20,000 nt of DNA from Chiloscyllium plagiosum. Lineage: Eukaryota. The DNA lies in assembly GCF_004010195.1 (NCBI RefSeq), contig NC_057719.1, positions 27,881,974 through 27,901,973 of the forward strand, read 5' to 3'. Positions 551-20,000 of the stretch are shown one piece after another. Numbering within the stretch: position 1 is the stretch's first letter; each line of letters opens with the position of its first letter. The notes below the pieces were generated by a model. That model was not told the origin of the DNA. It saw nothing but the letters and a program-made list of their open reading frames with translations, and did not search any database. Position numbers and translations under genes: made by a program.

Positions 551-880
551 CTCCACCCTACAAGCAGGGAGTTTATTTTTTTTTCCCAATCCGCACAGAT
601 GTCACACCAGGATTAATTTTTTTCTGACCCCTGTGGCAACCCTGGACCTGGTGGTACCTTGTACAATTGGTAATATTACCATCTTTGATCACACTCCAGT
701 GTTGAAAATGTGTTGCTCCACCCTACAAGCAGGGAGTTTATTTTTTTTTCCCAATCCGCACAGATGTCACACCAGGATTATTTTTTTTCTGACCCCTGTG
801 GCAACCCTGGACCTGGTGGTACCTTGTACAGTTGGTAATATTACCATCTTTGATCACACTCCAGTGTTGAAAATGTGTTG
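551..880. repeat. 165-bp tandem duplication (551-715 / 716-880)
   Basis: Two near-identical copies run CTCCACCCTACAAGC...GTTGAAAATGTGTTG, with only about 2 substitutions seen. Each unit includes the first ~15 nt of the adjacent insertion. Confidence 0.95.
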
Positions 881-1094
881 CTGGAAAAGCGCAGCAGGTC
901 AGGCAGCATCCAAGGAGCAGGAGAATCGACGTTTCGGGCATGAGCCCTTCTTCAGGAAAGCCCTTCGTGAAGAAGGGCTCATGCCCGAAACGTCGATTCT
1001 CCTGCTCCTTGGATGCTGCCTGACCTGCTGCGCTTTTCCAGCAATACATTTTCAGCTCTGATCTCCAGCATCTGCAGTCCTCACTTTTCCCTTT
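866..1094 (+). mobile_element. Miniature fold-back Penelope-like terminal element (family A) with 12-bp TSD
   Basis: Inverted arms 868-954 and 968-1054 (87 bp, 1 mismatch) flank a 13-nt spacer, and the right arm extends to ...CAGCATCTGCAGTCCTCACTTTTCC. TSD TCACACTCCAGT lies at 854-865 and 1095-1106. The L1 frame (DHTPV|HLLVK) rejoins when the insert is removed. Confidence 0.88.
923..958 (-). ncRNA. Minimal type-I hammerhead ribozyme motif (intact core)
   Basis: The minus strand reads UUC-CUGAAGA-A-GGGC-UCAU-GCCC-GAAAC-GUC-GAUUC. This gives the conserved core, a 4-bp helix II, a loopless palindromic helix III (ACGU) and a GUC cleavage triplet at 930-928. Helix I is weak. Confidence 0.7.
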
Positions 1095-1656
1095 TCACAC
1101 TCCAGTACACCTGTTGGTTAAGATTAAGGACGTTACAGTGGGTTCAAGACACTGGCAAATGGATCCCTTTATCCTCAAGGATAATAAGCTGGCAGAGTAT
1201 TTCTCTAGGGAATTTCCAGCGTTCCTAGCCATTATCTCAGGCTCGGTTAGTCGTCCAACCATCCTTTGGGAAACTGCCAAAGCCTATGCAGGGGGTTAGT
1301 TATTTCCTACTTTGCCAGTGGGAAGCAGCAGAAGGACAAGCAGCAAAGTCCACTCGAGGCATGGTTGAAGGCTTACTTTGATAGGCTCTCGTTGGTCAAG
1401 CTACAGTGGATTATGGTGCTGCGGTCTGCATTGAATTCCGTGCTCACTCAGATGGCAAAGAAGGGGCTTACCTTTGCAAAGCAAAGGTTACATGAGCATG
1501 GTGACAGACCAGGCAAATAATTAGTATATCTCGCCTGGAAAAGGAATGCCCCACAACCCATTACAGCGATTAGGGAAGGGTCTGGGAACCTAACATGTGA
1601 CTCCAAAACTATTAATGTGGCATTCCAGAGATTTTACTCTAAGTAAACCAATCTGA

Positions 1657-1686
1657 GGGTTGAGGGGAGGGGAGGGGAGGGGTGGG
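1657..1686 (+). repeat. (GGGGA)n purine microsatellite, potential G-quadruplex
   Basis: GGGTTGAGGGGAGGGGAGGGGAGGGGTGGG has six G-tracts and sits inside the L1 fragment. Confidence 0.7.
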
Positions 1687-1963
1687 TCAAAATGAAATCT
1701 TTTTTAAAAAGATCTGGAGCTCCTGGGCGTGACCCCCCACAAGAATCCTTTCTCAATGCCCCCTTATCAGATCAAGAGGTGCAGGAATCTATGAAGCAGC
1801 TTCAGAGTGGAAAGATGCCTGATGAACTTCCCAGCGAATTATATAAGGAATTTATAAGCATACTATCAGGCCCAATGCTCAATATGTTTAATGACCAATA
1901 CAGCCATGATTGTCTGGCACCATCTCAGAGGCGCCAATATTTCACTTATTCTTAACAATTGGA

Positions 1964-2404
1964 TGCTGGAGGCAAGGGTAATGGGTTAACAAGGTGAAAA
2001 AGCATTCATTATGTAGTGCCATTTAATAAGATGAGGCATTCAATATGTAAAGTCAGTTAACAAGGCGAAAAGCCTTCACCATGTGAAGCCAGTTATTCAT
2101 TGTTTAACAGCAGATGACTTAATCTTTACTATTGACACTCGCTGATTGTAACGGTCACCCAATCGATATATGCATGTTGCCTTATCTGGATGCTCCTCCT
2201 TGTAAGCGACTATATAATTCCTTAAGAAACTGCTGTTCCAGAGAAGACCGAGAACTCATGTCGCTGTGCATACGGGCAATCATTCTCTCTCCCTCCAGAG
2301 TCTGGAATAAAGATGAAGGAGGTAAAACCATATTGTGTCTCAGAGGTTGCTTCGACTGATACGGGGATAGGCAAAACAGGACGACACGTAAGCTAGCGTC
2401 AACA
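1964..2404 (+). mobile_element. Probable solo LTR (441 bp)
   Basis: It starts TG and ends CA, with imperfect inverted termini (TGCTGGAGGC / GCGTCAACA). TATATAA lies at ~2211 and AATAAA at ~2306. U3-like internal repeats (GTTAACAAGG-GAAAA twice) and retained CpGs are present. The flanks TGGA (1960-63) and TGGT (2405-08) form a 3/4-matched 4-bp TSD. Confidence 0.65.
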
Positions 2405-2614
2405 TGGTCTGCAGCCCTTCCAAATGACAAGTCAAAATGGCATGAAATTGTGAATCAATGCTGATCATGAAATGCTGCTTAATGATACACAGCATATTGA
2501 TCTTACTGAGACTTAGTTTGTAGCTACCAAAAGAAAATGTACTAAAAGGAAAGCTGCTTTAGGATTTATTAGCTTAGGGTAATACCAAGGTTTGTGCAGA
2601 ACACAATTGCTGTT

Positions 2615-2820
2615 GCATGAGAAGCTGTGGATTCGAGAACTTGAGTGCATAACTCAAGCTGACATTTAACTGAATGCCAGATAGTTACACACAGGGAATC
2701 ACAATGGCAAAATGCTGCAGTCTCAACTTCAAGGTACCTTGATACATACTTCCATCATAATGGCTCTTGTGGAGCCTTCTATGCAAAATTTCTCCTACAT
2801 TCACTTGAGCTTTGAACCAG
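2615..2820 (+). mobile_element. Very old SINE remnant, DeuSINE/SacSINE1-like
   Basis: Patchy similarity to recalled consensus segments (GAAG..GTGG.TTC.AG..CTTGAG..CA.AA.TC.AG.CTGACA and TTGTGG.AGC.TT.CT.TGC.AAATT..CCTACATT). Judged from memory, not aligned. Confidence 0.35.
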
Positions 2821-3034
2821 GAAGGGGTTCTGCATCAATATGGTAGTTTTTGATCTTAAACAGGATGTAACAAATCGCTGTGCATGTCTGACAGCTTTTA
2901 CAGATCTTGTGTGCTTCAGAAGTGCCCTTAAATGTATCACAAAATACAATACCAACGACTAACACGGGCAATACTGTCACAGGATTAAGACATAGATTGT
3001 CCTCCCAATCTAATCCCTTGATAATATCAGATCA

Positions 3035-3220
3035 GCAAGCCTAAACTCTGAAATTTCCTCCCTGAATACTCATTTTGTCCTTGAACTCACCTCTTTGACT
3101 AATGTATTGGTCACCTTCCCAATACCTTGCCCTTTCAGAGAAAATCATTTTACTTTCGGCCTCAATGACTCACACGATTCTTTTTCTACAACGCGAGACA
3201 CTAAATAAATCTACATTGTT
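3035..3220 (+). mobile_element. L2-type 3' tail remnant
   Basis: CCTAAACTCTGAAATTTCCTCCCT...CCTTGAACTCACCTCTTTGACTAA...TTGGTCACC...TTTTCTAC...ACTAAATAAAT resembles the conserved L2 3' end. Confidence 0.55.
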
Positions 3221-3402
3221 GGATTTTGAAGCAAATTTGCTCAGACTACCTGAATAGATTCTTCAATGATCATAATTATAATAGAGACCAAAAAACCAAT
3301 GACATTCAGCATGTGAATGCCAGACAGTGACAGGTGGGAGAAGGTCACCCTGACTTGCTGAAATCTGGGCAGTCACCAGACTGAATGAGTTTTAAAAGAA
3401 AC

Positions 3403-4066
3403 GAAGAAGAAATTGCTGGAAAACCTCAGTGGGTCTGGCAGCATCTTTGGGGAGAAATCAGACTTAATGTTTTGGGTCGAGTGATCCTTTAGAGGATTAA
3501 CTGATTTCTCCTCACAGACATGGTGTGGTGAAACGGTTAAAAATTATGTCCCAATACATGTGTGAATCTAACCGGAATGGAGGTGTTGCTTAGTCCCGTG
3601 TGAATCTTATTACACACCTCCCCGTGTGAATCTTCTTATCTGTATGTAACCAGAATGGAATGTGTTTTTTAGCCTTGCTCTGCTGTTCACATGAATGTTT
3701 ATATCTGGAAAAGAGTATATCAGCTGGAAAAGTCTCCAGTTCGGTGAGTCTGCTCTGGGGTTGCGTTTAACCGCCGAGCGTGGGTTGTTGGCAACCGCTC
3801 TACGAGAACTGACGGCTCCCAGTTCCGGTAACATGTAGAGTGAGTATAAGCCAGACCCGTTGTAAGTATGAGACCTGGTTGTGGCGACGCTGCGGGGAAT
3901 AAAATGCTCATATTCTAGCAGACTCGCCTCTTGGTCGTTTGTTCTGTGTCAGACTACTCTCCTACGAACCTGACCTTGAGAATTTTTTAAAACACATGGC
4001 CAGACCACCTGAGCTTTTCCAGCAATTTGTTTCTGTTTCCAATCAACAGCATCCGCAGTTTTCACA
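3403..4066 (+). mobile_element. Older fold-back PLE-terminal element (family B), split by a solo LTR
   Basis: The left arm AAATTGCTGGAAAACCTCAG..GGTCTGGCAGCATC..GGGGAGAAATCAGACTTAAT is inverted relative to the right arm ATTAACTGATTTCTCCTCACAGA|CCAGACC..CTGAGCTTTTCCAGCAATTT. A diverged 13-bp TSD reads TTTTAAAAGAAAC (3390-3402) / TTTTAAGAGAAGC (4067-4079). Confidence 0.75.
3524..3994 (+). mobile_element. Solo LTR (471 bp) with exact 5-bp TSD
   Basis: Termini are TGT...ACA, with TSD CATGG at 3519-3523 and 3995-3999. TATAA lies at ~3845 and AATAAA at 3898-3903. U3 has a repeated GTGTGAATCT (x3) and AACC[G/A]GAATGGA (x2). The host element rejoins across it. Confidence 0.9.
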
Positions 4067-5724
4067 TTTTAAGAGAAGCTTCATTTCAAAGACATAAACT
4101 CAAACAAAAAGCAAATCACCATAATTTTTAGAAAATGTTGTACACAGAGCTTTGGACTGAGCTAATGCTCAGCATTATAACTCAGACATTGTAAACAATG
4201 ATGTGTGTACAAATTGGGGGGTTCTGTGAAATTAAAGTAACTTGATACATACACACATGAATGGGTTAGAACAAATGAACCAAGGCAACCAAAGTACTTG
4301 AGAATTTTATACAATATCCCACATACCCTATAACACTCTGGTACTTCAGTTCAGGTGACAAGGTAAACACTTCATCTTATGTAAATCGCAACCATTAACT
4401 TTTTGCCAACATGTGTTATCTGATATTGCAGTTCTTTCTTAAGAAACACAATTTTAAAATTAAGTGTTTTAAAAATGTGTACATTTAAAAGCAAGCATAA
4501 GAAAATCTCTTCAGGGTGGAGGGCACATAGACCATCTCTGTTACAACGGACTGTTTTAAAGCATAGCGAATGGTACTATTGCTGACTCAGATCTCAAAAA
4601 GACTTTTAGAATATATGTGGTCTTCAACAATACAATGGATCCTTCTAAAAGATGTAAAACAATGGTTCCTACCTCAGACATCAAAGTGGGAGTTAACACA
4701 TTTATTGTCTTTTAGCTAAGGCAATCCATAAATGCGTCTGGCTTAAAACCCTGGATTACTCAACCCTCATTGTGGTTAGGATGACCCAGTCTGGAAGTCA
4801 CTTTTACAAGTTGAAACTGTATAAAACTGACTGTACAGCCACCTTGATGTGTAGAATGCCAAGTCTTTGAGAACTACTCTCAGATGGAAGCTTTCTGCAA
4901 GGGAGGATTTAGAGACAAGGATATTTGCAAACCAAATTCTGGTGTGTTGAAAGGAATGTGAATTAAATAAGATCAAGGATTTCTCTCCCTCCCAAAAAAA
5001 ACCCATCTACTAAACTACTGAAGTCATCATGTTAATAATGAATTCAAACAATTATGGTAATGATGATAATGATACCTATGGTTGATATACCACACTGATT
5101 TATTGGGACATTCTGCTTATTGTCTTATCTGTAAAATAATAAAATACTCATGTAATGTCTTGTCAAAACTTCCATTTCAAGGAACCTTCAGTAAATAACT
5201 GCTAACAAAATAACCTAAAATCTTTTTAAACAAGAGCTTTACTCCAGTTATACAGGGAGTGTCGACAAGAATGCTTCTCTCAAATTCAATTATTTTATCT
5301 TTTAAAAAACACAAAAAGGATGTTTGAATGTGTCCATTTTCAGATGTCCATCACAATCTCAAGAACAATTTCCAAGTACCAATTGCAAAACAAACTTTCT
5401 ACTTTCTTTCAATTACCAGAAATGAATAGCACAAATATCAATCTTACAACTCAAATCACTTACTATGCCTGTCAAATTTGATCTCAATTATTTTGTGAAC
5501 TAGCTCTTCTTCAAACATGAAATGAGCAAATTGAAACAATACGAAAACTAAATCAGCAGATTAAAATACAGAATATCCAAAGTTTACTAAAGTATCAATC
5601 AACAACGCTCGCTGATTTGTGCCAATGGCTACTACCTGGAAACATTTAAGTTTAAAAAAATTACAGTTACCTTCGCATTACAACAAGTTCAGGGCCAACA
5701 GTGAAAGGTAGCAGCACTGATATT

Positions 5725-5840
5725 CCCCAAGGACATTGTGGTTCAAGAAGGCACTCATCACGACTTAAGGGCAACTAGGGACAGACAATAAATGCTGGCC
5801 AGCCAGTGACACCCATACTGCATGGGTTAATAAAAAAAAA
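5725..5840 (+). mobile_element. 3' end of a CR1-like LINE/SINE with A-tail
   Basis: GTGGTTCAAGAAGGCA..CTTAAGGGCAACTAGGGA..GACAATAAATGCTGGCCAGCCAGTGACACCCA..AATAAAAAAAAA. A related copy lies inverted at 8735-8825. Confidence 0.6.
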
Positions 5841-6619
5841 GCATAAGTTTCCAGAAAAATGGAAAGCCATATCCATGAAACATGGTGCCAACAAGTAGCT
5901 CTGCTGCTGGCTTCTTCTAAGCTTCCACAGCCATTCTGCATTTATAGCTGTTCCTTATTGTCACTGGTACGGTGGAACCCAAACCACAAAAACATATGAA
6001 TGCTTCACTTGCAAGTTATTAAAGCTTCGTAATATGTGCACTGATGTTAAAAAATCTGGAAGCACTTACTGATTAAATATTAATTGAGCACCAACCCCTA
6101 TGCAAACATAGATCTAAATACCATTCTGCTTCAATATTTTCTGCATACTCCATTCAGGGCAAAGCAAGCATATAGATAAGCAACAACAGTTGACAAAAGC
6201 TTCCCACCACTGATGTTTCTTTTGCAAAGACACAGACTTACTTCAATTATAACTCTCAAACATCTCATTCAAATAATAATTTCTCAAAAACTTAAGGACC
6301 TCTATACCAAGTATAATGCTCTTAAATCAGGCTACAAACTAAGATAGGCCATTAGAAAACCCAACAAAAAGTGTCACAATGTTTATCTTCAGCAGTTTCT
6401 GCAACTGAATTTGGTGCAAGCAACATTACAAACGATAGAACAAGTAGCATAAAAGGACAATAGACAATACAAAGCAAGAGAGAATTAAGAGCCACAATAG
6501 CAGTGCTCTGTGGCCACTGGGTGAGATGTCCAAGGAATCTGCATATCTAAAATAACTCTGCACTTATAAAAGGAGATTATATTCAGCCTCCCAACGTCAG
6601 CTTGATCAATAGAAGGCAA

Positions 6620-6790
6620 AGTACAGAACACAAAACAGTACACCAAATAAACTGGCCCTTCAGCTCACCATGTTGCCATTCTAAATTAACTCCAACTGCC
6701 TGCCCATGGTCCCTATTCCTTTATTCCCAGCCTATTTGTGTGTCTTGTCGATATATCTCTGAAATGTTGCTTTGGTATATGCTTCTACCT
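6620..6790 (-). mobile_element. CR1 3'-end remnant
   Basis: ACAGAACACAAAACAGTACA...GGCCCTTCAGCTCACCATGTTG resembles the reverse complement of the CR1 3' stem-loop and tail seen at ~16960-17013. Confidence 0.45.
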
Positions 6791-7656
6791 CTTGAAAAGT
6801 ATTACTAACGTTTATAATTTGATTGTTAAATAAGCTTTAAGCATTTTAAAAAGTCAGTCCAACTTTAAGAAATCTAAAAACCTTAATTTAAATCTACTTT
6901 TCTTTATGCACCCAAGTGTGGAATGGGTTCACGTTAGATCCTAGCTTACATAAGCTTCTGTGACATTTTACTTTATCAAAAGCTAGTAAATGACAAATGC
7001 TTCTTAATGTGTCACTCATTACAGCTCAGTTATGTTGAAATAGCAGCAAGCACCACCATGGGGGGGGGGGGCGGAATTCAAAACTACTTCACCAAAGTCA
7101 TGTTGTGACTGAAATCAACATCTTTAGCACAGATTATGTGCAGTTAGTAAACTTGTTTCATGTTTTTATGTCCATTGTCAGGTGCACTCAGCAATATTCC
7201 CACTCCTGATAATGGTCCTACAAAGCAAGTAGAAGGCAGAGGCTACACAGGTGGTTACCCAGTGAAGGTAGGTTGCCATGTCCAAGAACCCGTGAACACT
7301 ATTTAATAAAACTGGACTGTGAGCAGAGGTGTAAGAGGAAACTAAAATTGGCTATTTAATAAAAATTGAATACTTCTCACTCGTCCATTGTGCAACTATA
7401 CAAAGCTCTCAGCAATCTTCAAACACCTACGCACTCTTATTAATTTAAGAGCATGTTGCCTCTTCTAAGTACCAATGGCAGATTTACTGTTGGGTAAACT
7501 TTAAGACTGAAATTTCTGGGCATTATAACTTCAGAAAGCTTTTTCCAGACGTGGCACTCTGTGGAATGACATAAGAACACAGCAACAGAAATTCAATATT
7601 AAACAAATATTAACAACTACTAATGCTGTTAATTGGCATTTAAAGTTTTCAGATTG

Positions 7657-7717
7657 ATACAATGGAAAACAATAAAATTGTATAGCTTCTAAACTATACA
7701 ATGGAAAACAATAAAAT
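7657..7717. repeat. 22-bp direct repeat
   Basis: ATACAATGGAAAACAATAAAAT occurs at 7657-7678 and 7696-7717. Confidence 0.9.
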
Positions 7718-7718
7718 A

Positions 7719-8190
7719 CAGGTAGTTCTCCTATGACCCTGTAATTGCATTCCAGCAACATCTTGCTTAATAGAAATAATGGGGCCTTTGAGAAAAGTGG
7801 GGTTGGGGTAGACCAGCAGAAAGCATCAATTACGATTGCTCAAAAATCACTAAAAGTCTAACACAAAGTATAACACAGCCTGAATGAAGGTTGAAATCAT
7901 ATTTATTAATGAAGCAAAAGTAAATTTAACACAGTACATTTAAAAAAAATGTAAGAAAGCTGCTCTCTGTACAATACCTCTCAGAAACATGCTCTCAGCA
8001 GCTGCCATCAGCACATGTGCAGAATGGCACAGATATCGGCATGTGTGCAGGACAACACGGACATTGGTGCATTCGCAAAAAGCAGCGCGCGAACCAATCC
8101 TTGCTGGAATTGGCTACTATGAATGGAGATGAGTGCTCCCGAAACTACTGTTCCCTAATTCTTCTGGCACGTTACAGGCAAATCATGCCT
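7719..8190. mobile_element. Possible pogo/Tigger-like DNA transposon fragment (one end only)
   Basis: TA|CAGGTAGTTCTCCTAT resembles a Tigger-type terminal inverted repeat (TIR) after a TA site. Internal ~27-nt degenerate repeats (TGTGCAG...) lie at ~8015-8090. No matching right TIR was found, so the right boundary is approximate. Confidence 0.35.
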
Positions 8191-8734
8191 TAAAATTAAA
8201 TAATGTTAATTTTAAGAGATTATATTAATCCGGTTTGTTCTATACACGTGAAGTGGAAAACATTAAAAAAAAGATTGATAACATACAGAAAGAGTTTACT
8301 TTGAAAGTACCCAGAAAACCCAATACTCTTTGGGATATAAGAAAGCAAAGTGTCCTTTTTCCATTCGTCAGCAGGTCATATACATGTTGATGGCCAACAT
8401 GAATTGCTTATAGCAGCTCTTGAACTTAAACAGCCTTAAATTAAATTTATTTCCACAGTCATTACCTCAATAACTTATGTTTTCTCGGATCTCAGTTAAT
8501 TAAGCATTCTTTTGCTGACAGGTTTAAAATTAGTCAGCTCTCCATTGCAGCCTCCTTCATACCCCTCAATTCCCCGACCACCAACCACCTTTCCTGAGCT
8601 GATGCAATCTCAAGACGTTAGCTAAAGGCAATCACTAATCCTAGACTTGTGCTTACTTTAAAACATCTATTTCCCATTGTCTACTAACTATTTCACCTGC
8701 AGTAAGTCCTTAGAGGAAGTATTTTAACTTCCAA

Positions 8735-8825
8735 TGGGACAAGGACATCACTGACAAGGCCAGTATTCATGGCTCATCCATAATTGTCCTTGAGAAGGTG
8801 GGACTGAGCTATCTTCTTAAAGCTG
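8735..8825 (-). mobile_element. 3' end of a CR1-like element (same family as 5725-5840)
   Basis: CATCACTGACAAGGCCAGTATTCATGGCTCATCCATAATTGTCCTTGAGAAGGTGG is a diverged reverse complement of 5725-5840. Confidence 0.55.
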
Positions 8826-10311
8826 TCACAAGTACCTGATTATATATTTCATGTATTGAGTTATAAGTTTTAATTTTAGAAATTGAATTTAAAATGTCAA
8901 TAAGTGGAAATATCTGATTAACAAGCTGGTGAACCAACCTGAAAGTAGTTCAATTAAAACAGACCATGGCAATCACAGCTTTGAAGGGAAGATGTGTATT
9001 GCTGGTATGGTTATAAAAGGTGTTCACAGGTAGGACTACAATAGTCATTTTGACTTTGTTTGGAATATCTCAAAATATGTCACCGAGCTAAAGAGATAAG
9101 ATTACGATGGGTGGGTAGTATTTTTTTGCTAGGCTTTATCTGAATGCTCTCTTACAGAAAGCAAGCTGCTTAACTTGGAGATAAGAAGAGAGAAGGTCTA
9201 TAGCAGCTGCAAAGTGAGTGAAGAGCTATCAGAAAAAAGTATGTTTGTTTTGAATGTCACTAAACAAAAAAGGTGTGATGTGCAACTTGAAGAGTTGCAG
9301 GTTGCTGTGCCGAACACTACTGGAAGGATTTCAAAGTAACTTGTACCCAGGAGATAACTGGAACATTGAGGAACAATGCAGTGAATAATAAGGAGCTGTG
9401 GCATACTTGGTTTTGAGTCAAAAAAAAGGAAACAGAATATAAATCCAGATCCCCTTGTAGTAATTCTTAGTAAACTATAGTGTTAAGAATTAAAGCAAAC
9501 ACTGAAAAATTATGTAAATAGTAAAATCTTTTAAACACATGAAATCTAGTGTAGTTCTTTTAGTTGATCATTCAAATATTTAACTTTCACTTTAAACATG
9601 TACAGTCTCTAGAGACTATTGCATTTTGTTATGATCTATCTGGTACAGTTGATTTCAAAGAAGTCATAACGTTAAGACATTGAGATAGGGCCCTTAAATT
9701 AAATTGCTAGTTGCTGGTAATCAAATAGGATTGCTTGCTTACTCTCACCTATGTTAGGATCAACAATGCATCCAAAAACTGGATTCACCCTCCAATATCT
9801 TTGCAAACTAGTTCAAAGTATCCTCACCCCGAGACCAGATAGGGTTTTCAATCTGCTTAGAAGATTTGTGTGAGTCCATTGTTGTTAAATTCCCTACAAT
9901 TATATTAAAGCTACCCAATCTCCTTCTAACCACCATCTTGTATAGCATCCTGCTCTAAGCTGCTAACGACAACATTCTGGCTGGTGCAGTCTCCCATTAT
10001 TGCTTAGTCACCAATCACCAATTATCATGTACCTCTTTACCAAAAACAATTCTAAAGCAAACTGAGACACTGATTCCCCTCTCTTCTATGTTGAGGAATC
10101 TCGAACTTTCACTGAGTCAGTAAGTCTAAGCTAGAGGGTGATAGGTCTACTGTAGCCACATTCGCAGAGGGCAATATACCATTTATCTCCCACACTGTAA
10201 TTCAAACATAGCATGCTTTACCATATTTTGGTCTATATTATCCATACCTACTAATTAGATAGGGTTGACATGGTATTTTTAAAAGACAAACAGCCACTAG
10301 GCTCTGTACTC

Positions 10312-10427
10312 CAACAAAGGAGGGGGAAAAAAACTGGAGGCTCAAATATTGGCATGTGTCAAACATCTTCAACAAAGGAGGGGGAAAAAAACTGGAGGCT
10401 CAAATATTGGCATGTGTCAAACATCTT
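10312..10427. repeat. Perfect 58-bp tandem duplication
   Basis: CAACAAAGGAGGGGGAAAAAAACTGGAGGCTCAAATATTGGCATGTGTCAAACATCTT occurs at 10312-10369 and 10370-10427. Confidence 0.95.
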
Positions 10428-10588
10428 CCAGTAGATAGCATAAAGAAAGCGAATCCAAGAAATGGATGATCAGAAATATTTACTTGACCAAGGGCAGACA
10501 GAGGAACAGGCAACAAGGGAGATAGTGTGCTCACAATTTCAGGGTGGCTTTTCTAATCCATAACTATTTAAATGTGCACTGCTACAAT

Positions 10589-10830
10589 AACATAAGATAG
10601 AAGTAGATGATATTGGGCTTGACCACTGATCTGTCATTCAATACCATCATGGTCAATCTTGGGCTTTAAATTCACTTTCCTACCCCATCTCATATAGGCT
10701 ATTACCTTAGAGATTAAAAATGTCAGTAATGGAGTGTTCACAACCATCTTGGTTAGAAAACTCCAAAGATTTACAGCTCTTGCAATTAAAAATTGCTCAT
10801 CTTAGTCATGAACTCTTTATCCTGAGACAA
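10589..10830 (-). mobile_element. Old CR1 3'-end fragment
   Basis: AACATAAGATAGAAGTAG..CATTCAATACCATCATGG..GGTTAGAAAACTCCAAAGATTTACA matches the reverse-complement pattern of the CR1 ORF2 C-terminus (LWN.LP region) and 3'UTR. Recalled, not aligned. Confidence 0.55.
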
Positions 10831-12215
10831 TACTCTACTGCTCTCTAAAATTAAGCAATCTTTGTTGGCTGTCATAGACAAAAGGCATTACAAGTGATAG
10901 CACCGCAAGCAGGACAATATTCAGCATTACTGTAGAAGGAAACAAAACAGGACAAAAAGTCTGTGCTGCCTGAACAACTGGCAAAGGTTCTGACCTCTGG
11001 TCAATATTAGATGACTTTTCTTCAAAACATAAACGTAGTTACCAGATGAGAAATAATCACACAAATGAAATTTGAACACAGTCACCAAAACCTAGCTATA
11101 GTCAATTTGTTTGGACACACCACTGCAAACAAAACATCCAGTAGTCTTCATTCCCAATGACTGCCTAGACTGTTGGTATACTTTGTGAAAGGTCTTAGGA
11201 ACATACATGGATGCCTTCCAGAAACATTAACCATGCAGATTCACTTGAAGATGTATATCACAAAAGCAGTGGAGTGTGTTTCAATAGAAGTTATTTCAGA
11301 TGGAAAAGTATTTTCTTGTAAATACGCTGGGAATTACCCTTAAACCAATGTTATAGAAATATTATTCATTTTAACTAAATAGGTAACTTTAGGCAGGTGG
11401 AGAAATTGGAATGATAATACAAAAAATTCAAATATAACCTCAATCAACCTTCATAAACTACCATCTTCTCTGAAGCAGACATGAAGTAGAAAACCTGACC
11501 ATTTTAATTGAAGTCAATGAGAAAGTGGATAACAGAAAAGAATAACTTTCAAATGGTACATTTGTGCAGTGTATTCTGGTGCCAGATTTTATTTGAAGGT
11601 CATTTCGCTGCAATATGTTCACAGAATTCCTTCAAACTTTTGAAGTAAGTTGCATGATCTGGGATGAATTTTTACCAAAAACTTCACCCAATGGCCCATC
11701 TTTTCATTGACTGAACAAGAACTTTGCTCTCTGATAATACTTTCGAGACTAGTCCGTTGCTAGCTCAGTGAAGCATAATTTCCTTGGTCTTTGCAACCTT
11801 TGGCAGGTCAAGTACCTAGAGTCTCAAATACAGTCAGATCAGTTTCCAATATATAGTAATATGGCGTTGAACATCCATTAACTGAATAGCTCCTAAAGAT
11901 ACTCCTCTATTTTGTTGGCATAATCAGTTTTTCTTGAGCATTTCTCATGTAACCAAAATTTTTTTTTTTGCATTCTAACATGCCTGTTACATTGGGCATT
12001 TTATTATGTTAATGACACTATGCAAATACATATTGTCATCATCCATACCTGCCACAATGAAGTGGTAAGCCAACTTCTTAAAACATCATAGTTTATGTAG
12101 GAAAGGTATTTGGACAATGCATTAGGTGGAAAGTTTGGAATTGTTTATTCCGTGATGTTGAACGATTGTTCTCGTCCATCCAAGCACAAGTTCTAATTTG
12201 GGATGCTTGCATAAC

Positions 12216-12440
12216 AGTCAAAGATTGGGGTGCTGGAAAAGCACAGCTGGTCAGGCAACATCACAGGAGCAGGTGAATCAACGTTTCAGACACAAGCCCT
12301 TCATGAGGAATCCTGATGAAGGGCTTATGCCTGAAACATTGACTCTCCTGTTCCTTGGATGCTGTCTGACCGGCTGTGCTTTTCTAGCACCACACTCTTC
12401 GACTCTGATCTCCAGCATCTGCAGTCCTCATTTTTTCCAC
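12216..12440 (+). mobile_element. Fold-back PLE-terminal element (family A, diverged) with 11-bp TSD
   Basis: Inverted arms are centred at ~12309, and the right arm extends to CAGCATCTGCAGTCCTCATTTT. The TSD reads GCTTGCATAAC (12205-12215) / GCTTACATAGC (12441-12451). A decayed hammerhead GAAUC-CUGAUGA-A-GGGC-UUAU-GCCU-GAAAC-AUU-GACUC lies at 12308-12345. Confidence 0.85.
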
Positions 12441-12454
12441 GCTTACATAGCCTC

Positions 12455-12790
12455 GAGGTACACAATGCTGATATGGAATGCCTGCTGGTGAAGGCAGTGA
12501 ATGTTCAATGATGGGGTGCCAATCAAGTACAGCTATAATAACATTCAAAGAAGGGATCATTTCCAACTCCTGCCTCATAAATAGTGAAAAGGCTTCAGGT
12601 AGTCAGGAGTTGAGTTACTCCCCACAATATTCTCAGCCTTTGACCTGCCATAATATCTACTTGGTTAGTATCTTGTGGCCATAATATCTACTTGGTTGGT
12701 CGAGTTAAATTTTTGGTCAGAATGTCAGCAACTGCAAACTAATATGGGAAGATGGTCAGACTACCCCTTTTGGAGAAAGTAGTTGACTGG
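12455..12790 (-). mobile_element. Decayed CR1-group LINE RT C-terminal fragment
   Basis: The reverse complement resembles the 'DQKLNW..HI..VA..AGQRL.IL..VT.LL' region. An internal 20-bp duplication GCCATAATATCTACTTGGTT occurs at ~12647 and ~12678. Confidence 0.55.
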
Positions 12791-14057
12791 TAATGGTACA
12801 ACAAATTTATAATGCGGTATACTTGGTGAAAGTGAGGATGACCAAAGAAAATCAACGGTTATGGTACTATAAATGTAATAACAGCACATACAAATTTAAA
12901 ACTTTTTTTAATACAAATTTGGAAATGCAAGGATTTGAATCAAACACATCTAAGCTTTTGGTCTGAAGTAATCAATTTAGACCATGTGGATCAAAAAATA
13001 CAATATAATTATTGTTCATATTTAGTTTGTAATTTTAAAACATGTTTGAAGCTTTATTCACTATTAATAACACTTTTTGAATGCAAAGACAAAAGAACAT
13101 ACTGGCAATACGCCTTGCTGCAGTAATTAAGCCGCTCTACAGAATTCTCAGTGGAAAATATAAACCCCAATTCCTGTAAAACGATCAATACCAAAACTGA
13201 TATAACCCAATGACAATTTCCCTTCATCTACTTTGAAAGTAGAAAGCCAAATACTAGACGTCCAACACAATGACTCAAAAATAACCATCTTCAAAAGAAA
13301 TTTGGATCATCAGTGGGATCAGCGTTACCGCAAGAAAATGAACAAGGAAATACATTACCTCTCCTGCCCCTACAAAAGTTTCGTCAGAGCTTACAAGTGT
13401 CCAGAAAAATAAATCGCTGGTGTGGCTTGAAGAACTTGTCACAATTAAACCAAGTAATTAAATACAACTCCACAACACAGTACGACTTTTCACTAAAACC
13501 ACGAAATAGTTTTAGAGGCTTAAATCAAACGTGGCGGACATTTCGAAGCATACTGTCCCCCCAGGAAGGGTATTCCAATTAACATAATGTAAAATGAAAA
13601 AAAAACATAATTACATTAAAATCCGAACAAATAAGCAGAGACTCTCGTAAATGCCTCCTGAAGCTCCAGACCAGTTCCAGGTAAAGACACTCATCACCCA
13701 CTCGTCCTTATGGAGCCCTATCCCGACAACAGACAAATCCCGACACATCAGCTTGATGCCGGGGGTCCCTTAAACAAAGCGGCCCAAGGTCACCCGGAGA
13801 GAGGGAGGCCAGCCTCCCGCCAGCAGGCAGCAGCCTTTCCCCAGGACTGAGTGTCCAGGCCGAGTTCCAGCTCCACAAAATGGCGACGTGGATCCCGGAG
13901 CCAGAGTCCCGGGAGCTGCAGCCATTCTCCACTAAACCCAACACTACCCCCTCCCTCGGCTCTGGGCGATCGAAAACAGACATCGGCCTCCTCCACGACA
14001 ACAGGGTTCGAGCAGGACCCGCCCCCTTCCCTACCGAAAGCGGCCGCACTCACTCAC

Positions 14058-14086
14058 CACTTCTTCTCGGTACCGGGCGCCTGCAT
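14058..14086 (-). CDS. Predicted first coding segment (MQAPGTEKK + 2 nt, phase 2) within predicted exon 14058-14120; gene unidentified
   Basis: The minus strand reads ttttatag|GGATCGAGC...GCGAG ATG CAG GCG CCC GGT ACC GAG AAG AAG TG|gtgagt. The donor is strong, the acceptor is plausible, and there is a purine at -3. The ATG could instead belong to a uORF. Confidence 0.5.
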
Positions 14087-14261
14087 CTCGCGCTTATTGT
14101 CCTCGCCGGGGGCTCGATCCCTATAAAACTCGCAGCCACCGGGCTCTCGCTGTCTCTTGTTGGGAGGCTCGGGTCAGGCAGCCGCTTGGATCGTCACATC
14201 CGAGTCATAACTCTACGATCCCACCAAAACACAAGAATGGCGCCCGCTAACTTGCACTTAC

Positions 14262-14325
14262 ACCTCCGCGAACACCAACTTTCTGTCGGCCGCTTGTCGT
14301 CTCCCCTCCAACCCCCAAAGCTCTC
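14262..14325 (-). other. Predicted non-coding exon 1 (TSS approximate)
   Basis: It ends GCGGAGGT|gtaagt (donor at 14261), contains no ATG, and lies directly downstream of the motif cluster. This implies a 141-nt intron at 14121-14261. Confidence 0.55.
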
Positions 14326-14327
14326 CT

Positions 14328-14435
14328 TGCGTCAGCCTCACGCGCGCCTGACGTGATTGCGTCATGTGCGCGCATGTTCCCTCCACGTCCCGCCCCCTAT
14401 CCCGGCCCCGCCCCCCTGGCTGGAGGCTCCACGTG
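14328..14435 (-). promoter_or_regulatory. Proximal promoter motif cluster: 3 CRE/ATF half-sites, NRF1-like palindrome, 2 GC boxes, E-box
   Basis: TGCGTCA 14328-34, TGACGTG 14349-55, TTGCGTCA 14357-64, TGCGCGCA 14367-74, CCCGCCCC 14389-96, CCCCGCCCC 14406-14 and CACGTG 14430-35. Confidence 0.75.
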
Positions 14436-14499
14436 CCCAAGGCATCAGCTGTGCGGCAATGCCACGCTGGACAGACAATTTGCCAGCGATGCAAAGGGG

Positions 14500-14600
14500 T
14501 TAATGAATTGGGTCACTGGGCCCGAAGCGTTAACTCCGTTTGCCTCTCTACGAATGATGTCAGACCTGCTGAGATTCTCCAGCAATTTATGCTTTCGTTT
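14500..14600 (+). mobile_element. Single-arm PLE-terminal element (family B) next to the promoter
   Basis: GGGTCACTGGGCCCGAAGCGTTAACTCCGTTTGCCTCTCTAC..GTCAGACCTGCTGAGATTCTCCAGCAATTT is homologous to the arms at 3403-4066. Hammerhead helix II (GGGUC/GGCCC) is retained, but the core is mutated. Confidence 0.7.
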
Positions 14601-14754
14601 AATGCGGTTCAGCGAACCCAAACACGAACGCAGGAAATAAACCAACATACCCAACATCTAGGGATGGGGAGACATAATTAGGAAATGGGGTCAAATAAAA
14701 TAATTTTGTGATCATTTACATTTGCTTGATCGCATTGGCTTGCTTGTGGCTACT

Positions 14755-15800
14755 CAACATAGAACATGGAAAAAATTGCCCTTCAGCCCATCATATTCAC
14801 ACCGTCATGAAGAATCAATCAATTCCACAGCATATAGCTTGTAATAGTGCATGTTATGGTGTCTCAGATGCTCGTCTACTTTTAAATGACGTCAGGGTGT
14901 TCACCACCTCAAATCTTTTAAATCACACAATACCAGGTTTTTTAAACTTTGTCCACCCAAGTCCAACACCAGCACCTCCCAGTCAAGACAAACCTTTTTG
15001 GTAGTGAGTTCCAGATATCCATCAATTTTCATGTCATCTGCAAACTTACTGATCATGCCTCCTACATTCATGTCTAAATCATTACTGTATAATAATTAGT
15101 TTTCTTACAACTGGAAACATCTTCACCACATCCACTCTGTCTTGGTCTCTCAGTATTTGTAAGTTTCAGTGACATTTCCCCACCTCATCCTTCTGAACCC
15201 AGAGTCCTCAACTACTATTCGTATGACAAGCCCTTCATTGCCGGGATCATTCTTGTAAACCTCATCTGGACCTCTTCCAATGGCAGCACTTCCTTCCTTA
15301 GATATGTGGCCTAAAACAGCTCAAAATATTCCAAATATGTCATCCACACTTGTGTTCTAGCCCTCTCAAAACAAATGCTAGCATTGTTTTTGCATTCCTA
15401 ACTGCCTACTGTTAATCTTAAGAGAATTCTGAACTGGGTCTCCTAAATGCTTTGGTGCTACAAATTTTCAAAGTTTTTTCCCATTTAGAAAATAGTCTTT
15501 TTCAGGATGGCAGCCAGTGACTAATGGAGTTTCACATAGTTCAGTGTTGGGACCACAACTCCTTATGTTATCCATCAACAAACATTAAGCAAAAAGGAAA
15601 TGAGGGCATTGTCGCTAAGCGCCAGGTAATGTTGAGAAAGTGGGAAGGCTGCAGAAAGAGTGGGAGAGTGGGAAAAGTAGTGGCAGATGGAATACAATAT
15701 GGAAAAATGTGCAGTTATCTGTTTTGGTAGCAAGAAGAGAAGCATATATTATTTTATAAACTGAAATGAATGCTAACATTGCATTTGATTTCCTAACTAC
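14755..15800. mobile_element. Cluster of decayed CR1 fragments in both orientations
   Basis: The minus strand at ~15025-15057 encodes MISKFADDMKI (RT FADD motif). The minus strand at ~15225-15335 resembles LEY..QFW.PYLRK.VL.LE.VQ.RFTRMIP. The plus strand at ~15520-15563 gives TNGVSHSSVLGPQL (cf. SGVPQGSVLGP). Confidence 0.75.
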
Positions 15801-16088
15801 CAACTGAAGCTGCACATTGCTGTAGGTCTGGAGTCACATGAAGGCCAGACAGGTGAGGGTGGGAGAATGACGTGAGTGAGCCAGATGCAACTTGGACCTT
15901 ATTCAAAAGCTACTTTTGTTAAAACAAAGAAGTTCTTTTTGTCCTTTGTTTACTTTAAACATGTTGGTGCATGATATATGCTTAAATCAGTGATGATTCT
16001 CTGGTGGGATGACAATTCAAGTTATAATATGACAAAGAGCCAGTTACTCTACAACACAATTTCTGACATGAAACAACAATAATTGTAA

Positions 16089-16240
16089 GGCAAAGGTGTG
16101 GACTGCAGATGCTAGAAACCAGAGTCCAGATTAGAGTGGTGCTGGAAAAGCACAGCAGATCAGGCAGCATCCTGACCTGATTTTCCTACTCCTCGGATGC
16201 TGCCTGACCTGCTGTGCTTTTCCAGCACCACCCTAATCTA
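16089..16240 (-). mobile_element. Fold-back PLE-terminal element (family A-related) with exact 14-bp TSD and central deletion
   Basis: AGATTAGAGTGGTGCTGGAAAAGCACAGCAGATCAGGCAGCATCC is inverted against GGATGCTGCCTGACCTGCTGTGCTTTTCCAGCACCACCCTAATCT. TSD AACAATAATTGTAA lies at 16075-16088 and 16241-16254. The hammerhead segment is absent. Confidence 0.88.
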
Positions 16241-16280
16241 AACAATAATTGTAAAACAATCTAGAGGAATTTGTATTCAA

Positions 16281-17013
16281 GGACTTATACACTTAATGGT
16301 AAGGTCCTGAACAAAGAGACCTTGGAGTGCAGGTTCATAGCTCTTTGAAAGTGGAGTCGGAAGTAGATAGAATAGTGAAGAAGGCATTTGGTATGCTTTC
16401 CTTTATTGGTCAGAGTATTGAGTACAGGAATTGAGAGGTCATGTTGCGGCTGTACAGGACATTGGTTAGGCTGCTGTTGCAATTCTGGTCTTCCTATCAA
16501 AAAGATGTTGTGAAACTTGAAAGGGTTCAGAAAAAATTTGCAAAGATGTTGCCAGGGTTGGAGGATTTGAGCTATAGGGAAAGGCTGAACAGGCTGGGGC
16601 TGTTTTCCCTGGACCATCGGAGGTTGAGGGGTCACCTTATAGAGGTTTACAAAATCATGAGGAGCATGGATAGGATAAATAGACAAAGTCTTTTCCCTGG
16701 GGTCGGGGAGTCCAGAACTAGAGGGCATAGGTTTAGGGTGAGAGGGGAAAGAAATAAAAGAGACCTAAGAGCAACTTTTTCACACAGAGGCTGGTACATG
16801 TATGGAATGAGCTGCCAGAGAAAGTGGTGGAGACTGGTACAACTGCAACATTTAATAGGCATTTGGATGGGTATATGAATAGGAAGGGTTTGGAGGGACG
16901 TGGGTCGGGTGCTGGCAGGTGGGACTAGATTGGATTGGGATATCTGGTCGGCATGGATGGGTTGGACCGAAGGGTCTTTTTCCATGCTGTACATCTCTAT
17001 GACTCTATGACTC
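16281..17013 (+). mobile_element. 5'-truncated CR1 LINE (HER1-like), ORF2 C-terminus plus 3'UTR
   Basis: The ORF MLRLYRTLVR..QFWS.YQKDVVKLERVQKKFAKMLPGLEDLSYRERLNRLGLFSL..RRLRG.LIEVYKI..SRTRGH is the canonical CR1 C-terminus. It ends in an 8-mer tail (CTCTATGA)2. A possible TSD reads TGTATTCAA (16272-80) / TGTATTGAA (17014-22). Confidence 0.95.
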
Positions 17014-17279
17014 TGTATTGAATAAAATGTAAAATAAAGTCTTGCTTTTTGTGAACTTCCATCAGATATCACTCAAATATTAGAAAATAAAGATTAGCAC
17101 TTTATAGTGTATAGTGTATGAGAGCTAGTTAGTTATCAAATCTACATACTGCATGTCATGAAATGCCATGTATGTTTGATTTAGATCTTTTTAGTTTCAG
17201 GTCTCATCCAAGAGCTGGCACCTTCAAAAATACAGTATTTCTAGAGTTTTTTTAAAAGAAGAGAATAGCATAGAATAAA

Positions 17280-17492: not shown

Positions 17493-17849
17493 CAGGTGCC
17501 TTCAATCAATGAAATAAATGATGGTATTGATAAAACATAAATATGATACTTCAATTTGAGCATGAGATGCTTGTATTATGCCAGAAGCTCAAATGTATGT
17601 ATAACTAAAAAGATGAGAACCGTAATAATTTTAAATTACTGAATCGATTTTCAATAAATCCCCTGCATATAACACAATGATAAAAATAGAAATGCATTTT
17701 AAACAATAATTCAGTGGAATGAATATATTGCAATAAGTGAACTGAAACTGTGCTCTCTAAATCAGTGGTAAACCAAGCAACTATTGTATTCTTTGGAAAG
17801 CCAAAAAAAGGTTCTGGCTTCCTCAGTGCTTTAATATATGCTATGTTAA

Positions 17850-17986
17850 TATATTCTGTGATATGATAATAAATTCTGTGAGCATGATCTTAATCTCCAC
17901 AACCACCTGATGAAGGAGCGACACTCCGAAAGCTAGTGCTTCCAAATAAACCTATTGGACTATAAACTGGTGTTGTGTGATTTTAA
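17850..17986 (+). mobile_element. Short PLE-terminal element (family C) with 9-bp TSD
   Basis: It contains a hammerhead motif followed by AATAAA, and is flanked by CTATGTTAA at 17841-17849 and 17987-17995. Confidence 0.7.
17904..17938 (+). ncRNA. Minimal type-I hammerhead ribozyme motif
   Basis: CAC-CUGAUGA-A-GGAG-CGACA-CUCC-GAAAG-CUA-GUG gives helix I CAC/GUG, helix II GGAG/CUCC, a palindromic helix III AGCU and the triplet CUA (17933-17935). Confidence 0.72.
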
Positions 17987-18049
17987 CTATGTTAACAAAG
18001 TAATATATTAATACCAACTAATGCAGATGTGAAAGATCACAAGTTTCAT

Positions 18050-18466: not shown

Positions 18467-19683
18467 ACGCCATTATGCCAAGTTTATTACTAATAAGATA
18501 CTACAATTGGTTCCAGCACTCCTAAACTGAAGGGAAGTCTAGGATTAATGACAATCTTTTATTACACTGTCATGTCTTATTGAGTAGCACACTGGAAATC
18601 AAACCTTGCTATTCCCAGAGTTGTTACAAAAGTTATAAATTTTAATATAAGTACCAAAGTTCCCCAACATACCTGATTTTCTGACCCAGGTTGATAGAAA
18701 GCGTGAACCAAATTTCTGTACTAAACAATACTTACTATTTATTACAAGTAACTGGACTCTAGCCACAAGTAAATAGTTATAAACTGGTATATAACACAAC
18801 AAATTAAAACTTTAATTCTCTTTTAAATTTCCCTCACGCACAGACAAACAAAGACGGAAAAATAGGAGTGGTTCAGTGGTTCTATTTGTATGTTATTGAA
18901 ATGATCCTTATGATCTTTACTTTGTAAGAATGCTACTTTCTGTTGCCCTACTCTGGATGCTTCCATTGATTCACAACAGACACTGCATGATTGGTTCACT
19001 TATAAAAGGTCTGTGACTTGACAGGCAAAACTCTCAGCTAACAGCAGCTGATATGTGAAAAATGAAGTGGTTTTCTTCAGGTTTAAAATAGGTTTTGACT
19101 GCAGAAAACAACTTCAATGCTGATGGAGATCAAATCTTTTCTCTGTATGTTGTTCTCATCCCCAAGTTGTTTAGTTACCTGAAAGCACAGGCAAACATTT
19201 TTGTCATCAACAATTGGTCACTAGTTCATAGACCAACACCTTTTTTGCCACCCAGCTGTATCTGTACCCAGAACCCCTCAGCTCCGATTTGTCTGTGCCC
19301 ATTTCAATTACTGCTTAGTTACAAACAGATATTTAAATAATGCTTGCAAGAAGTATCAGGTTGCTTGCTTTTAAAATATGCATCAATCTTTAAAAACGCT
19401 TGTTTTAGAACAGGTATTTCTCATTTCAGTTCATGATTTTAAAAAGAGCAAAGCTAACAAGACATAGTCTTTACAACAACATACCCCCAAGTTCCTAACT
19501 TCAGAGTTTATTGTTGATTGCTTTCTTGAGATCCCTCCTTTAAAATTGTCTATCTGGGCAAGGAGGGGTGAGGAAGAACAGAAGACATTTTCCTTGGTTT
19601 GTTTCTTGGCCTGGCCATGGTGGCCATTAATAAATCCTGGCAGTATGTTGTAGAGAGGGTTCTCAACTGCATTATGTCTGCTA

Positions 19684-20000
19684 GGAGAAAGTGAGGACTG
19701 CAGATGCTGGAGATCAGAGCTGAAAAAGTGTTGCTGGAAAAGCGCAGCAGGTCAGGCAGCATCCAAGGAGCAGGAGAATTGACATTTCGGGCATGAGCCC
19801 TTCTTCAGGAATGAGGAAAGTGTGCCAAGCAGGCTAAGATAAAAGGTAGGGAGGAGGGACTTGGGGGAGAGGCGTTCGAAATGCGATAGGTGGAAGAAGG
19901 TTAAGGTGAGGGTGATAAGGTGAGGGTGATAAGCCAGAGTGGGGGTGGGGCCGTAGAGGTCAGGAAGAAGATTGCAGGTTAGGAAGGTGGTGCTGAGTTC
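19684..20000 (-). mobile_element. 3' end of a longer family A Penelope-like element, continuing beyond the window
   Basis: 19684-19810 is nearly identical to the arms at 866-1094. It continues into a C/T-rich (minus strand) UTR-like region. The hammerhead core CUGAAGA (19808-19802)...GAAA-UGUC shows CpG-type decay in helix III. Confidence 0.85.

Follow-up and report, generated by a model that had tools for sequence, protein, structure and literature searches.

Four asymmetric insertions and related copies

The window, i.e., the whole 20,000-nt stretch of DNA analyzed here, contains four small hairpins (E1–E4) that, judged from non-coding anatomy, resemble very short, dead tail-end copies of Penelope-like elements (PLEs) in a shark-type genome. 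All four share one asymmetric design, as the sequence-only reading had proposed: an inverted, tail-less arm is joined to a longer forward arm with a one-sided extension (tail) of 29–39 nt, between target-site duplications (TSDs) of 11–14 bp. They do not form the single family assumed there, and fall instead into two repeat families, A (three subfamilies: E1, E3, and E4) and B (E2). The same design recurs in several unrelated families in the window. The labels E1–E6 and A–C are our own, and positions within elements are counted from hammerhead position 17 (= 0), which places C3 at −27 in family A.

E1 (866–1094, plus strand) lies between exact 12-bp TSDs at 854–865 and 1095–1106 (plus). Its inverted arm (866–958, minus; family A, −30 to +62) carries an intact minimal hammerhead core on the minus strand, and a 5-nt junction insert (959–963, plus) separates it from the forward arm (964–1094, plus; −30 to +98), which ends in a 36-nt tail and has a G in place of C3 in its core. 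The two arms mismatch at 3 of 93 nt. The 5 junction nucleotides, together with the next 3, reproduce an 8-nt stretch found 16 nt off in the inverted arm (p = 0.008), and this junction does not complete helix I beside the core. Read at the protein level, a lone tail-less piece of the E1 subfamily is also present in a Chiloscyllium plagiosum gene model, with one copy of a 5-residue repeat on either side.

E2 (3401–4066, plus; family B) measures ~190 bp net of a nested insert and is flanked by 11-bp TSDs with one mismatch (3390–3400 and 4067–4077, plus). Homology in its inverted arm (3401–3490, minus) extends to about the G8 region of the core, with an uncertain end at about −22 to −29, while the forward arm (3497–4066, plus) starts at about −1, the predicted cut site, and ends in a tail of about 29 nt (4038–4066, plus). 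This arm is split at 3524–3994 (no strand assigned) by a solo-LTR-like insert, a putative label given for its TG...CA ends, within a 5-bp duplication (3519–3523 and 3995–3999).

E3 (12214–12438, plus) has 11-bp TSDs with two mismatches (12203–12213 and 12439–12449, plus) and belongs to the second family-A subfamily; its inverted arm (12214–12311, minus; −31 to +65) and forward arm (12312–12438, plus; −29/−28 to +97, tail of 32 nt) are identical at 77 of 93 positions and meet flush, with a 1-nt overlap. E4 (16089–16240, minus; exact 14-bp TSDs at 16075–16088 and 16241–16254, plus) represents the third subfamily. There, the forward arm (16089–16172, minus) runs from +17 to the 3′ end, with a tail of about 38–39 nt, and is followed by a 6-nt junction insert (16173–16178, minus) lying within a 9-nt exact match to the neighboring arm (p = 0.003). 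The inverted arm (16179–16240, plus) extends from +1, the first base after the predicted cut, to about +58/59; the aligner placed its start at +1 against E1 and at +2 against E5, whose +1 base differs. Compared with the sequence-only reading, boundaries of E1 and E4 were kept, E2 now begins at 3401 rather than 3403, and E3 moved from 12216–12440 to 12214–12438.

We evaluated the TSDs against 20,000 random position pairs per element, with boundaries fixed to ±2: 0 pairs matched as well for E1, 6 for E2, 107 for E3, and 0 for E4. With wide boundary windows, the E3 TSD was not significant (80/400) and that of E2 was marginal (9/400). Targets were AT-rich in most cases. Whole inserts, including the fifth described below, span 70–230 bp and lack an ORF and a direct pLTR pair; the earlier claim of "no ORF" needs the qualification that chance ORFs cross E1 and E3, and the one scanned, through E1, has no Pfam match.

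Further copies lie nearby. E5 (19683–20000, minus) is a long, tail-bearing family-A copy, 96% identical to E1, which passes through −30 without inversion at that point and reaches at least −219 before running off the window; it carries an Inr-like motif whose A falls at −31, and this 7-mer occurs at about 1.2% of positions. E6 (14920–14988, plus; family C) is a probable fifth inverted insert, with 10-bp TSDs including one mismatch (14910–14919 and 14989–14998, plus) and arm ends near +30 and +46, neither of them at the hammerhead. We take its forward part to be the family-C tail, for which the window holds no reference. Two lone tail-less copies complete the set: a family-B arm (14506–14598, plus), which starts near the hammerhead core and has a 6-bp flanking repeat that may be chance, and a family-C copy (17850–17986, plus) with a minimal hammerhead at 17907–17935 and an exact 9-bp TSD (17841–17849 and 17987–17995). 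Both end where inverted arms end, suggesting that this end is a start site.

Hammerhead motifs and the positions of arm ends

A pattern scan of the window placed the minimal hammerhead motif with a 4-bp helix II at 967, 12313, and 17907 on the plus strand and at 955, 12307, and 19808 on the minus strand. These motifs, typical of PLE ends, belong to families A and C, and most copies are mutated. The four insertions differ in their hammerhead content: E4 has no core, E2 has only a partial core, and the forward core of E1 has the G at C3. No hammerhead was among the 14 Rfam matches, and free folding of four segments gave the hammerhead fold as the minimum-energy structure in none, with helix II formed in 3 of 4. 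A microRNA precursor was also rejected, all 14 Rfam matches being below the gathering threshold.

The inversion point lies at the hammerhead upstream edge in E1 (−30/−30) and E3 (−31/−29), in agreement with the sequence-only reading. Across the 10 arm ends of the five inverted inserts, E6 included, 6 fall at this edge or at the predicted cut site, the latter in E4 (+1) and E2 (about −1). When one end is counted per insertion, p ranges from 0.011 to 0.18, so that the clustering is suggestive only, and E6 breaks at ~+30/+46; the proposed "ribozyme-delimited template" is hence suggested, and no more.

At the E3 junction, the 5′ strand pairs with its own 3′ strand at 5 of 6 helix I positions, and at 6 of 6 with the undecayed strand of E1, compared to 3 of the first 4 positions in the contiguous context. 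A flush −31/−28 join as in E3 could thus complete helix I, and some fold-backs would perhaps be better ribozymes than their parent, although this is a single case noticed after the fact.

Comparison with published elements

The inverted layout of E1–E4 is already in print for the PLE class, which makes the earlier description as an "under-described system" an overstatement: no new kind of mobile element appears to be involved. In published descriptions, cited throughout from the available portions of each source, the PLE unit comprises an adjacent inverted pLTR, an 8–10 bp TSD, and a 31-bp tail on one side (PMC3846280), or an inverted 5′-truncated copy and a 30–40 bp tail (PMC8557442). Endonuclease-bearing (EN+) units thus resemble the inserts here in the head-to-head truncated copy on the 5′ side, the one-end 30–40 nt tail, the variable TSD of ~10 bp, and the mostly AT-rich targets (PMC3846280, PMC8557442, PMC8969392). 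The inserts here differ in having no ORF and no direct pLTR pair within their 70–230 bp, in TSDs of 9–14 bp compared to 8–10 bp in rotifer PLEs (PMC3846280), and in templated junction inserts, which the available descriptions of the PLE unit do not mention. This fit, together with recurrence in several unrelated families, supports the earlier suggestion of a "stereotyped product of PLE integration." The origin of the inverted structures is called undefined in the available published work. Our literature search turned up no publication on mini fold-backs of shark PLEs, PLE twin priming, or PLE strong-stop products, which is weak evidence given that most subscription papers and Repbase/Dfam were outside its scope.

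Poseidon of Anolis (PAc) is alike in layout, with the hammerhead about 60–100 nt upstream of two ends 30–40 nt apart and both target strands used. The purified lizard protein nicks both strands and extends them, and it initiates at two internal positions that bound the tail (PMC11167929). Hammerhead cleavage was dispensable in vitro for PAc, and the study detected neither RNA reads that end at the cut nor any in vivo sign of cleavage (PMC11167929), whereas two arm ends here (E4 and E2) lie at the predicted cut.

Minimal type I hammerheads typical of metazoan PLE ends share with the motifs predicted here a CUGANGA core, an extra base before helix II, a palindromic 4-nt helix III, and a short helix I, and likewise occur as many solo motifs and as opposite-strand pairs, 100–700 bp apart (PMC4209133). 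By comparison, helix II here would be 4 bp, in predicted motifs that are mostly mutated. Non-LTR retrozymes are also non-coding, hammerhead-bearing, and PLE-derived, and form head-to-tail tandem arrays (bioRxiv 10.64898/2026.07.22.740005), in contrast to the single head-to-head inserts here; this assignment was rejected, only head-to-head or lone copies and no head-to-tail tandem units being present in the window.

Neither RT nor GIY-YIG coding sequence turned up in the window, and protein searches with end translations yielded none, so that the mobilizing enzyme is unseen. These searches for a partner yielded 0 hits, 2 of 28 candidates (both belonging to a host gene model), 0 of 1, and 0 by phmmer, and gave no support to an ORF of the element beginning within these ends. 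Among 6 window ORFs scanned, Pfam matched 1, the endonuclease of a host LINE, and no PLE enzyme. Pattern-scan matches in viral (0) and metagenome (3) contigs and prokaryote genomes (1) were all dropped as chance since these GC-rich loci match only 22–25 nt.

Probable assembly at insertion and alternative explanations

Overall, we favor, with a probability of roughly 0.7, that the inserts are extremely 5′-truncated, endonuclease-bearing PLE retrotransposons, each assembled at insertion and now dead. For their assembly, we infer twin priming. The element's GIY-YIG endonuclease would nick both target strands 10–14 bp apart; one nick would prime reverse transcription at an outer start site (+97/98), yielding the tail, and the other would prime at an inner start site (+58 to +65), yielding none. 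Both antisense cDNAs would be short, often halting close to −30, the possible 5′ end of the RNA, and host end-joining would link their ends by 0–3 nt of microhomology, at times after short templated addition. The product would be a head-to-head fold-back of two cDNAs, one per target nick, joined end to end. In L1 twin priming, two target-primed, microhomology-joined cDNAs similarly give a 5′ inversion inside the TSD; in L1 the two arms derive from distinct stretches of the RNA, while the arms here overlap almost fully, form a hairpin, and have no poly(A) tail.

What is observed in the sequence is the TSD, the inverted tail-less arm, the forward tail-bearing arm, and a variable junction. In 4 of the 5 inverted inserts (E2, E3, E4, and E6), each arm has private bases lacking in the other, which argues that the arms were copied separately. 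In the same four, the inverted arm extends further 5′ than the forward arm while the tail is on the forward arm only, suggesting that neither arm is a DNA copy of the other. The inserts at the E1 and E4 junctions are templated from nearby sequence (p = 0.008 and 0.003).

A more specific and tentative proposal is that these minis are paired run-off ("strong-stop"-like) cDNAs, i.e., that RT would start about 100–130 nt from the RNA 5′ end at both target nicks and run off at the transcription start at −31 (the hammerhead front edge) or at the hammerhead cut at +1. If so, twin-primed PLE integration and in vivo cleavage by a minimal hammerhead would both have left traces in the genome that can be counted; for such cleavage, the literature covered offers no in vivo evidence. 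A genome-wide pile-up of ends at −31 and +1, with private arm sequence, would favor twin priming over self-priming, and would also provide evidence on the start position of the RNA and on whether the ribozyme is active in cutting in vivo; herein lies the value of the stubs as footprints of PLE integration.

Self-priming, in which an antisense RNA (or cDNA) would pair with itself at a short palindrome and so prime synthesis of the second arm, would still make the inserts a PLE product and appears unlikely. It was proposed, on an antisense template, for head-to-head palindromes of rotifer Penelope elements (PMC3846280); fold-back of antisense RNA predicts the further reach of the inverted arm at the junction seen in 4 of 5 inserts, and short snap-back synthesis could account for the inserts of E1 and E4. 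Yet these two junctions contain non-contiguous inserts and no plain overlap, a pure DNA fold-back is unable to give each arm private sequence, and the tail-bearing ends adjoin the TSD at +97/98 in E1, E3, and E4, the position expected under target priming on sense RNA. Extension of both target strands in vitro (PMC11167929) also speaks against it. Slightly less probable still are non-autonomous fold-back families (MITE-looking or retrozyme-like), transcribed and retrotransposed as hairpin units, perhaps as a flush head-to-head join completes the ribozyme. Non-autonomous PLE derivatives are described in published work, and the helix I strand supplied at the E3 junction fits this view, against which stand the incomplete helix I at the E1 junction, the coreless E4, and four different junctions in four subfamilies. 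No junction is shared among E1–E4, or among the five with E6. With one copy per subfamily in the window, these unique junctions are no proof of a one-off origin, and templated junction inserts would be inherited too if the hairpin were copied as a unit. The MITE-looking family moving as a unit, as first suggested, finds no support here, the E1 subfamily also being present as a long copy uninverted at −30.

Under the preferred reading of PLE copies assembled at insertion, E1–E4 would be, as elements, ordinary dead stubs, of note since in annotation they can pass for MITEs and microRNA hairpins. Being short and non-coding, with near-perfect inverted repeats enclosed by direct repeats, they do resemble MITEs or terminal inverted repeat (TIR) remnants of a DNA transposon, an origin we regard as very improbable. 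The fixed-length TSD expected of such a TIR was not observed: TSD lengths vary (12, 11, 11, 14, and 10 bp for E1, E2, E3, E4, and E6, and 9 bp for the lone family-C copy), and the arms are unequal by the 29–39 nt tail, in contrast to the symmetric terminal inverted repeats of MITEs, which together largely refute this origin. The same sequence also occurs as lone arms and as a long copy.

Fold-back inserts and repeat families

All four fold-back inserts proposed by the sequence-only reading, namely E1 (866–1094, +), E2 (3401–4066, +), E3 (12214–12438, +), and E4 (16089–16240, −), are present, with its coordinates right to within 2 nt. The target-site duplications (TSDs) of 11–14 bp that it reported were confirmed: we measured 12 bp (exact) for E1, 11 bp with one mismatch for E2, 11 bp with two mismatches for E3, and 14 bp (exact) for E4. 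When boundaries were set by homology, 0, 6, 107, and 0 of 20000 random pairs, respectively, were as good; with wide boundary windows, the E3 TSD was not significant (80/400). These counts, like those on arm ends and junctions, are drawn from the window, a repeat-rich region of about 35–46% GC with one stretch at 52%, plus one Chiloscyllium plagiosum protein. The repeat's only match outside the window was in a C. plagiosum gene model, where a quarter of the query aligned at 90% identity.

E1, E3, and E4 belong to repeat family A, each as a separate subfamily (about 82–84% for E1 vs E3). E2 is a member of family B, and nested within it is a solo-LTR-like insert flanked by a 5-bp duplication. Also present in the window are E5 (19683–20000, −), a long family-A copy with 96% identity to E1, and lone tail-less copies of family B (14506–14598) and family C (17850–17986). 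E6 (14920–14988), whose forward part is presumably a family-C tail, is a probable fifth inverted insert with a 10-bp TSD.

E1 folds into a single long hairpin (z = −28.6). The hairpins at 896–1025 and 16134–16233 matched a number of microRNA models in Rfam, with E-values as low as 1e-8 but scores always below the gathering threshold, and we rejected a microRNA identity on these scores. Both are a trap for annotation and, if transcribed, possible dsRNA sources.

Arm anatomy and origin of the inverted form

On a scale where hammerhead position 17 is 0 (C3 at −27 in family A), the forward, tail-bearing family-A arms terminate at +97/98, like E5, and the inverted arms at +62, +65, and +58/59, hence a one-sided extension of 32–39 nt; in E2 it is about 29 nt. 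Lone copies end where the inverted arms of their own family do. According to a rotifer study, the typical Penelope-like element (PLE) unit has an adjacent inverted pLTR, a TSD of 9–10 bp, and a one-sided tail of 31 bp (PMC3846280), and the Naiad paper describes the same design throughout PLE clades, with a 30–40 bp tail (PMC8557442). The inverted copy and one-sided tail are shared here, with a tail of about 29–39 nt against 31 bp in the rotifer unit. From this published anatomy, it is clear what the inserts work like. They exist, they recur, and a miniature version of the described PLE insertion pattern explains them. Four non-coding features would place them among PLEs, a group defined by an RT + GIY-YIG ORF. 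Neither a MITE nor a retrozyme fitted the inserts. Minimal hammerhead motifs are mostly solo pieces of truncated PLEs, and some form opposite-strand pairs 100–700 bp apart (PMC4209133). Our literature search, with most subscription papers outside it, found no account of shark mini fold-backs and no templated junction inserts or run-off products in PLEs.

Junction-side ends (inverted/forward) lie at −30/−30 in E1, −31/−29 in E3, about −22 (uncertain, to −29)/−1 in E2, +1/+17 in E4, and about +30/+46 in E6, with no two junctions alike among inverted inserts in the window. The E1 junction carries a 5-nt insert within an 8-nt exact match to the adjacent arm (p = 0.008), the E4 junction a 6-nt insert within a 9-nt exact match (p = 0.003), and the E3 junction is flush with a 1-nt overlap. 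For 4/5 inverted inserts, 5′ bases missing from the forward arm are present in the inverted arm, and the tail is on the forward arm only. Thus, neither arm is a DNA copy of the other, from which we infer an external template for both. The purified PLE protein of a lizard nicks both target strands, extends them, and initiates at two internal RNA sites, which bound the tail (PMC11167929). In the simplest reading, each target nick would yield one cDNA, each from a different start site, and the two would then be linked by microhomology-type repair; jointly with the PLE assignment, we give this a probability of about 0.7. Self-priming on an antisense template, the published alternative (PMC3846280), likewise predicts an inverted arm that reaches further at the junction, but alone does not yield the non-contiguous inserts seen at the E1 and E4 junctions, and we consider it improbable.

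The E1 subfamily occurs in three forms: as a fold-back in E1, as a long copy in E5, and, read from protein, as a lone tail-less piece between copies of a 5-residue repeat. These forms favor fold-backs being assembled at each insertion, as judged from one copy per subfamily; with that sample, some hairpins may nonetheless have spread secondarily as units. At E3, the junction strand pairs 5/6 helix I positions (6/6 with the undecayed 3′ strand; 3 of the first 4 in the E5 context), giving a longer helix I (12303–12350) than in the contiguous element. This completion, a single after-the-fact case, would suit such units, but the E1 junction supplies no such pairing.

Arm ends relative to the hammerhead

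The data hint at breakpoints bound to the ribozyme, as proposed. Of ten arm ends, six lie in one of two 5-nt windows (−31 to −29 or −1 to +1), superseding 7/8 from a looser list. With the upstream window picked post hoc from the data, this clustering has p = 9e-5 to 0.008, varying with the assumed range, if ends are taken as independent, but only 0.011 to 0.18 with one end per insertion, and both E6 ends lie elsewhere. The lone copy at 14506 starts near the hammerhead core, as does the apparently exonised piece in the C. plagiosum protein P0001 (about −31 to −25, protein-level reading). E5 extends past the core to at least −219, and so does the family-C copy, which reaches about −85 provided that its TSD is correct. 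E5 has an Inr-like motif with its A at −31, a type of motif present at 1.2% of positions.

Penelope of Drosophila virilis has its start site 46 nt upstream of an intron, and the end of that intron corresponds to helix I (PMC4209133), a precedent for initiation just upstream of the ribozyme. Given this precedent and arm ends near the ribozyme front edge, cDNA run-off at an RNA 5′ end could plausibly account for the arm ends. Since this front edge, and not the cut site, is the commoner landmark, "ribozyme-delimited", if taken to mean cleavage, applies to E4 and the E2 forward arm alone. Run-off combined with in vivo hammerhead cleavage is a reading that we consider less likely than not.

Neighborhood of the inserts

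E1 lies in a decayed LINE (50–1950, +), which we take to be L1/Tx1-like and whose N-terminus is of AP-endonuclease type (Pfam PF03372, E 7.6e-7). A 165-bp tandem duplication there (551–717/716–882; copies overlapping by 2 nt and differing at 2 of 167 nt) covers the left-hand TSD of E1 together with ~15 nt at the start of its inverted arm, and is therefore later than, or concurrent with, the E1 insertion. The C. plagiosum FUBP3-like gene model (P0001/P0002) has at its end a family-A PLE stub, apparently exonised and flanked by two copies of a 5-residue repeat; this could be either a genuine alternative exon or an artefact of gene prediction.

Around E3, minus-strand open-frame stretches near 13290–13420, 11560–11800, 11190–11300, and 10430–10500 may be exons of a putative gene, in which case E3 would be intronic; the region 13700–14500 is rich in GC and CpG and resembles a promoter or first exon. 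Past E4 in window coordinates, a LINE 3′ fragment (16270–17015, +), presumably CR1/L2-type, ends in short tandem repeats and gave no match in a Pfam search. The segment 17285–17490 resembles, we assume, the 3′ part of a shark SINE/LINE, and 10309–10424 is a 58-bp tandem duplication with 98% identity.
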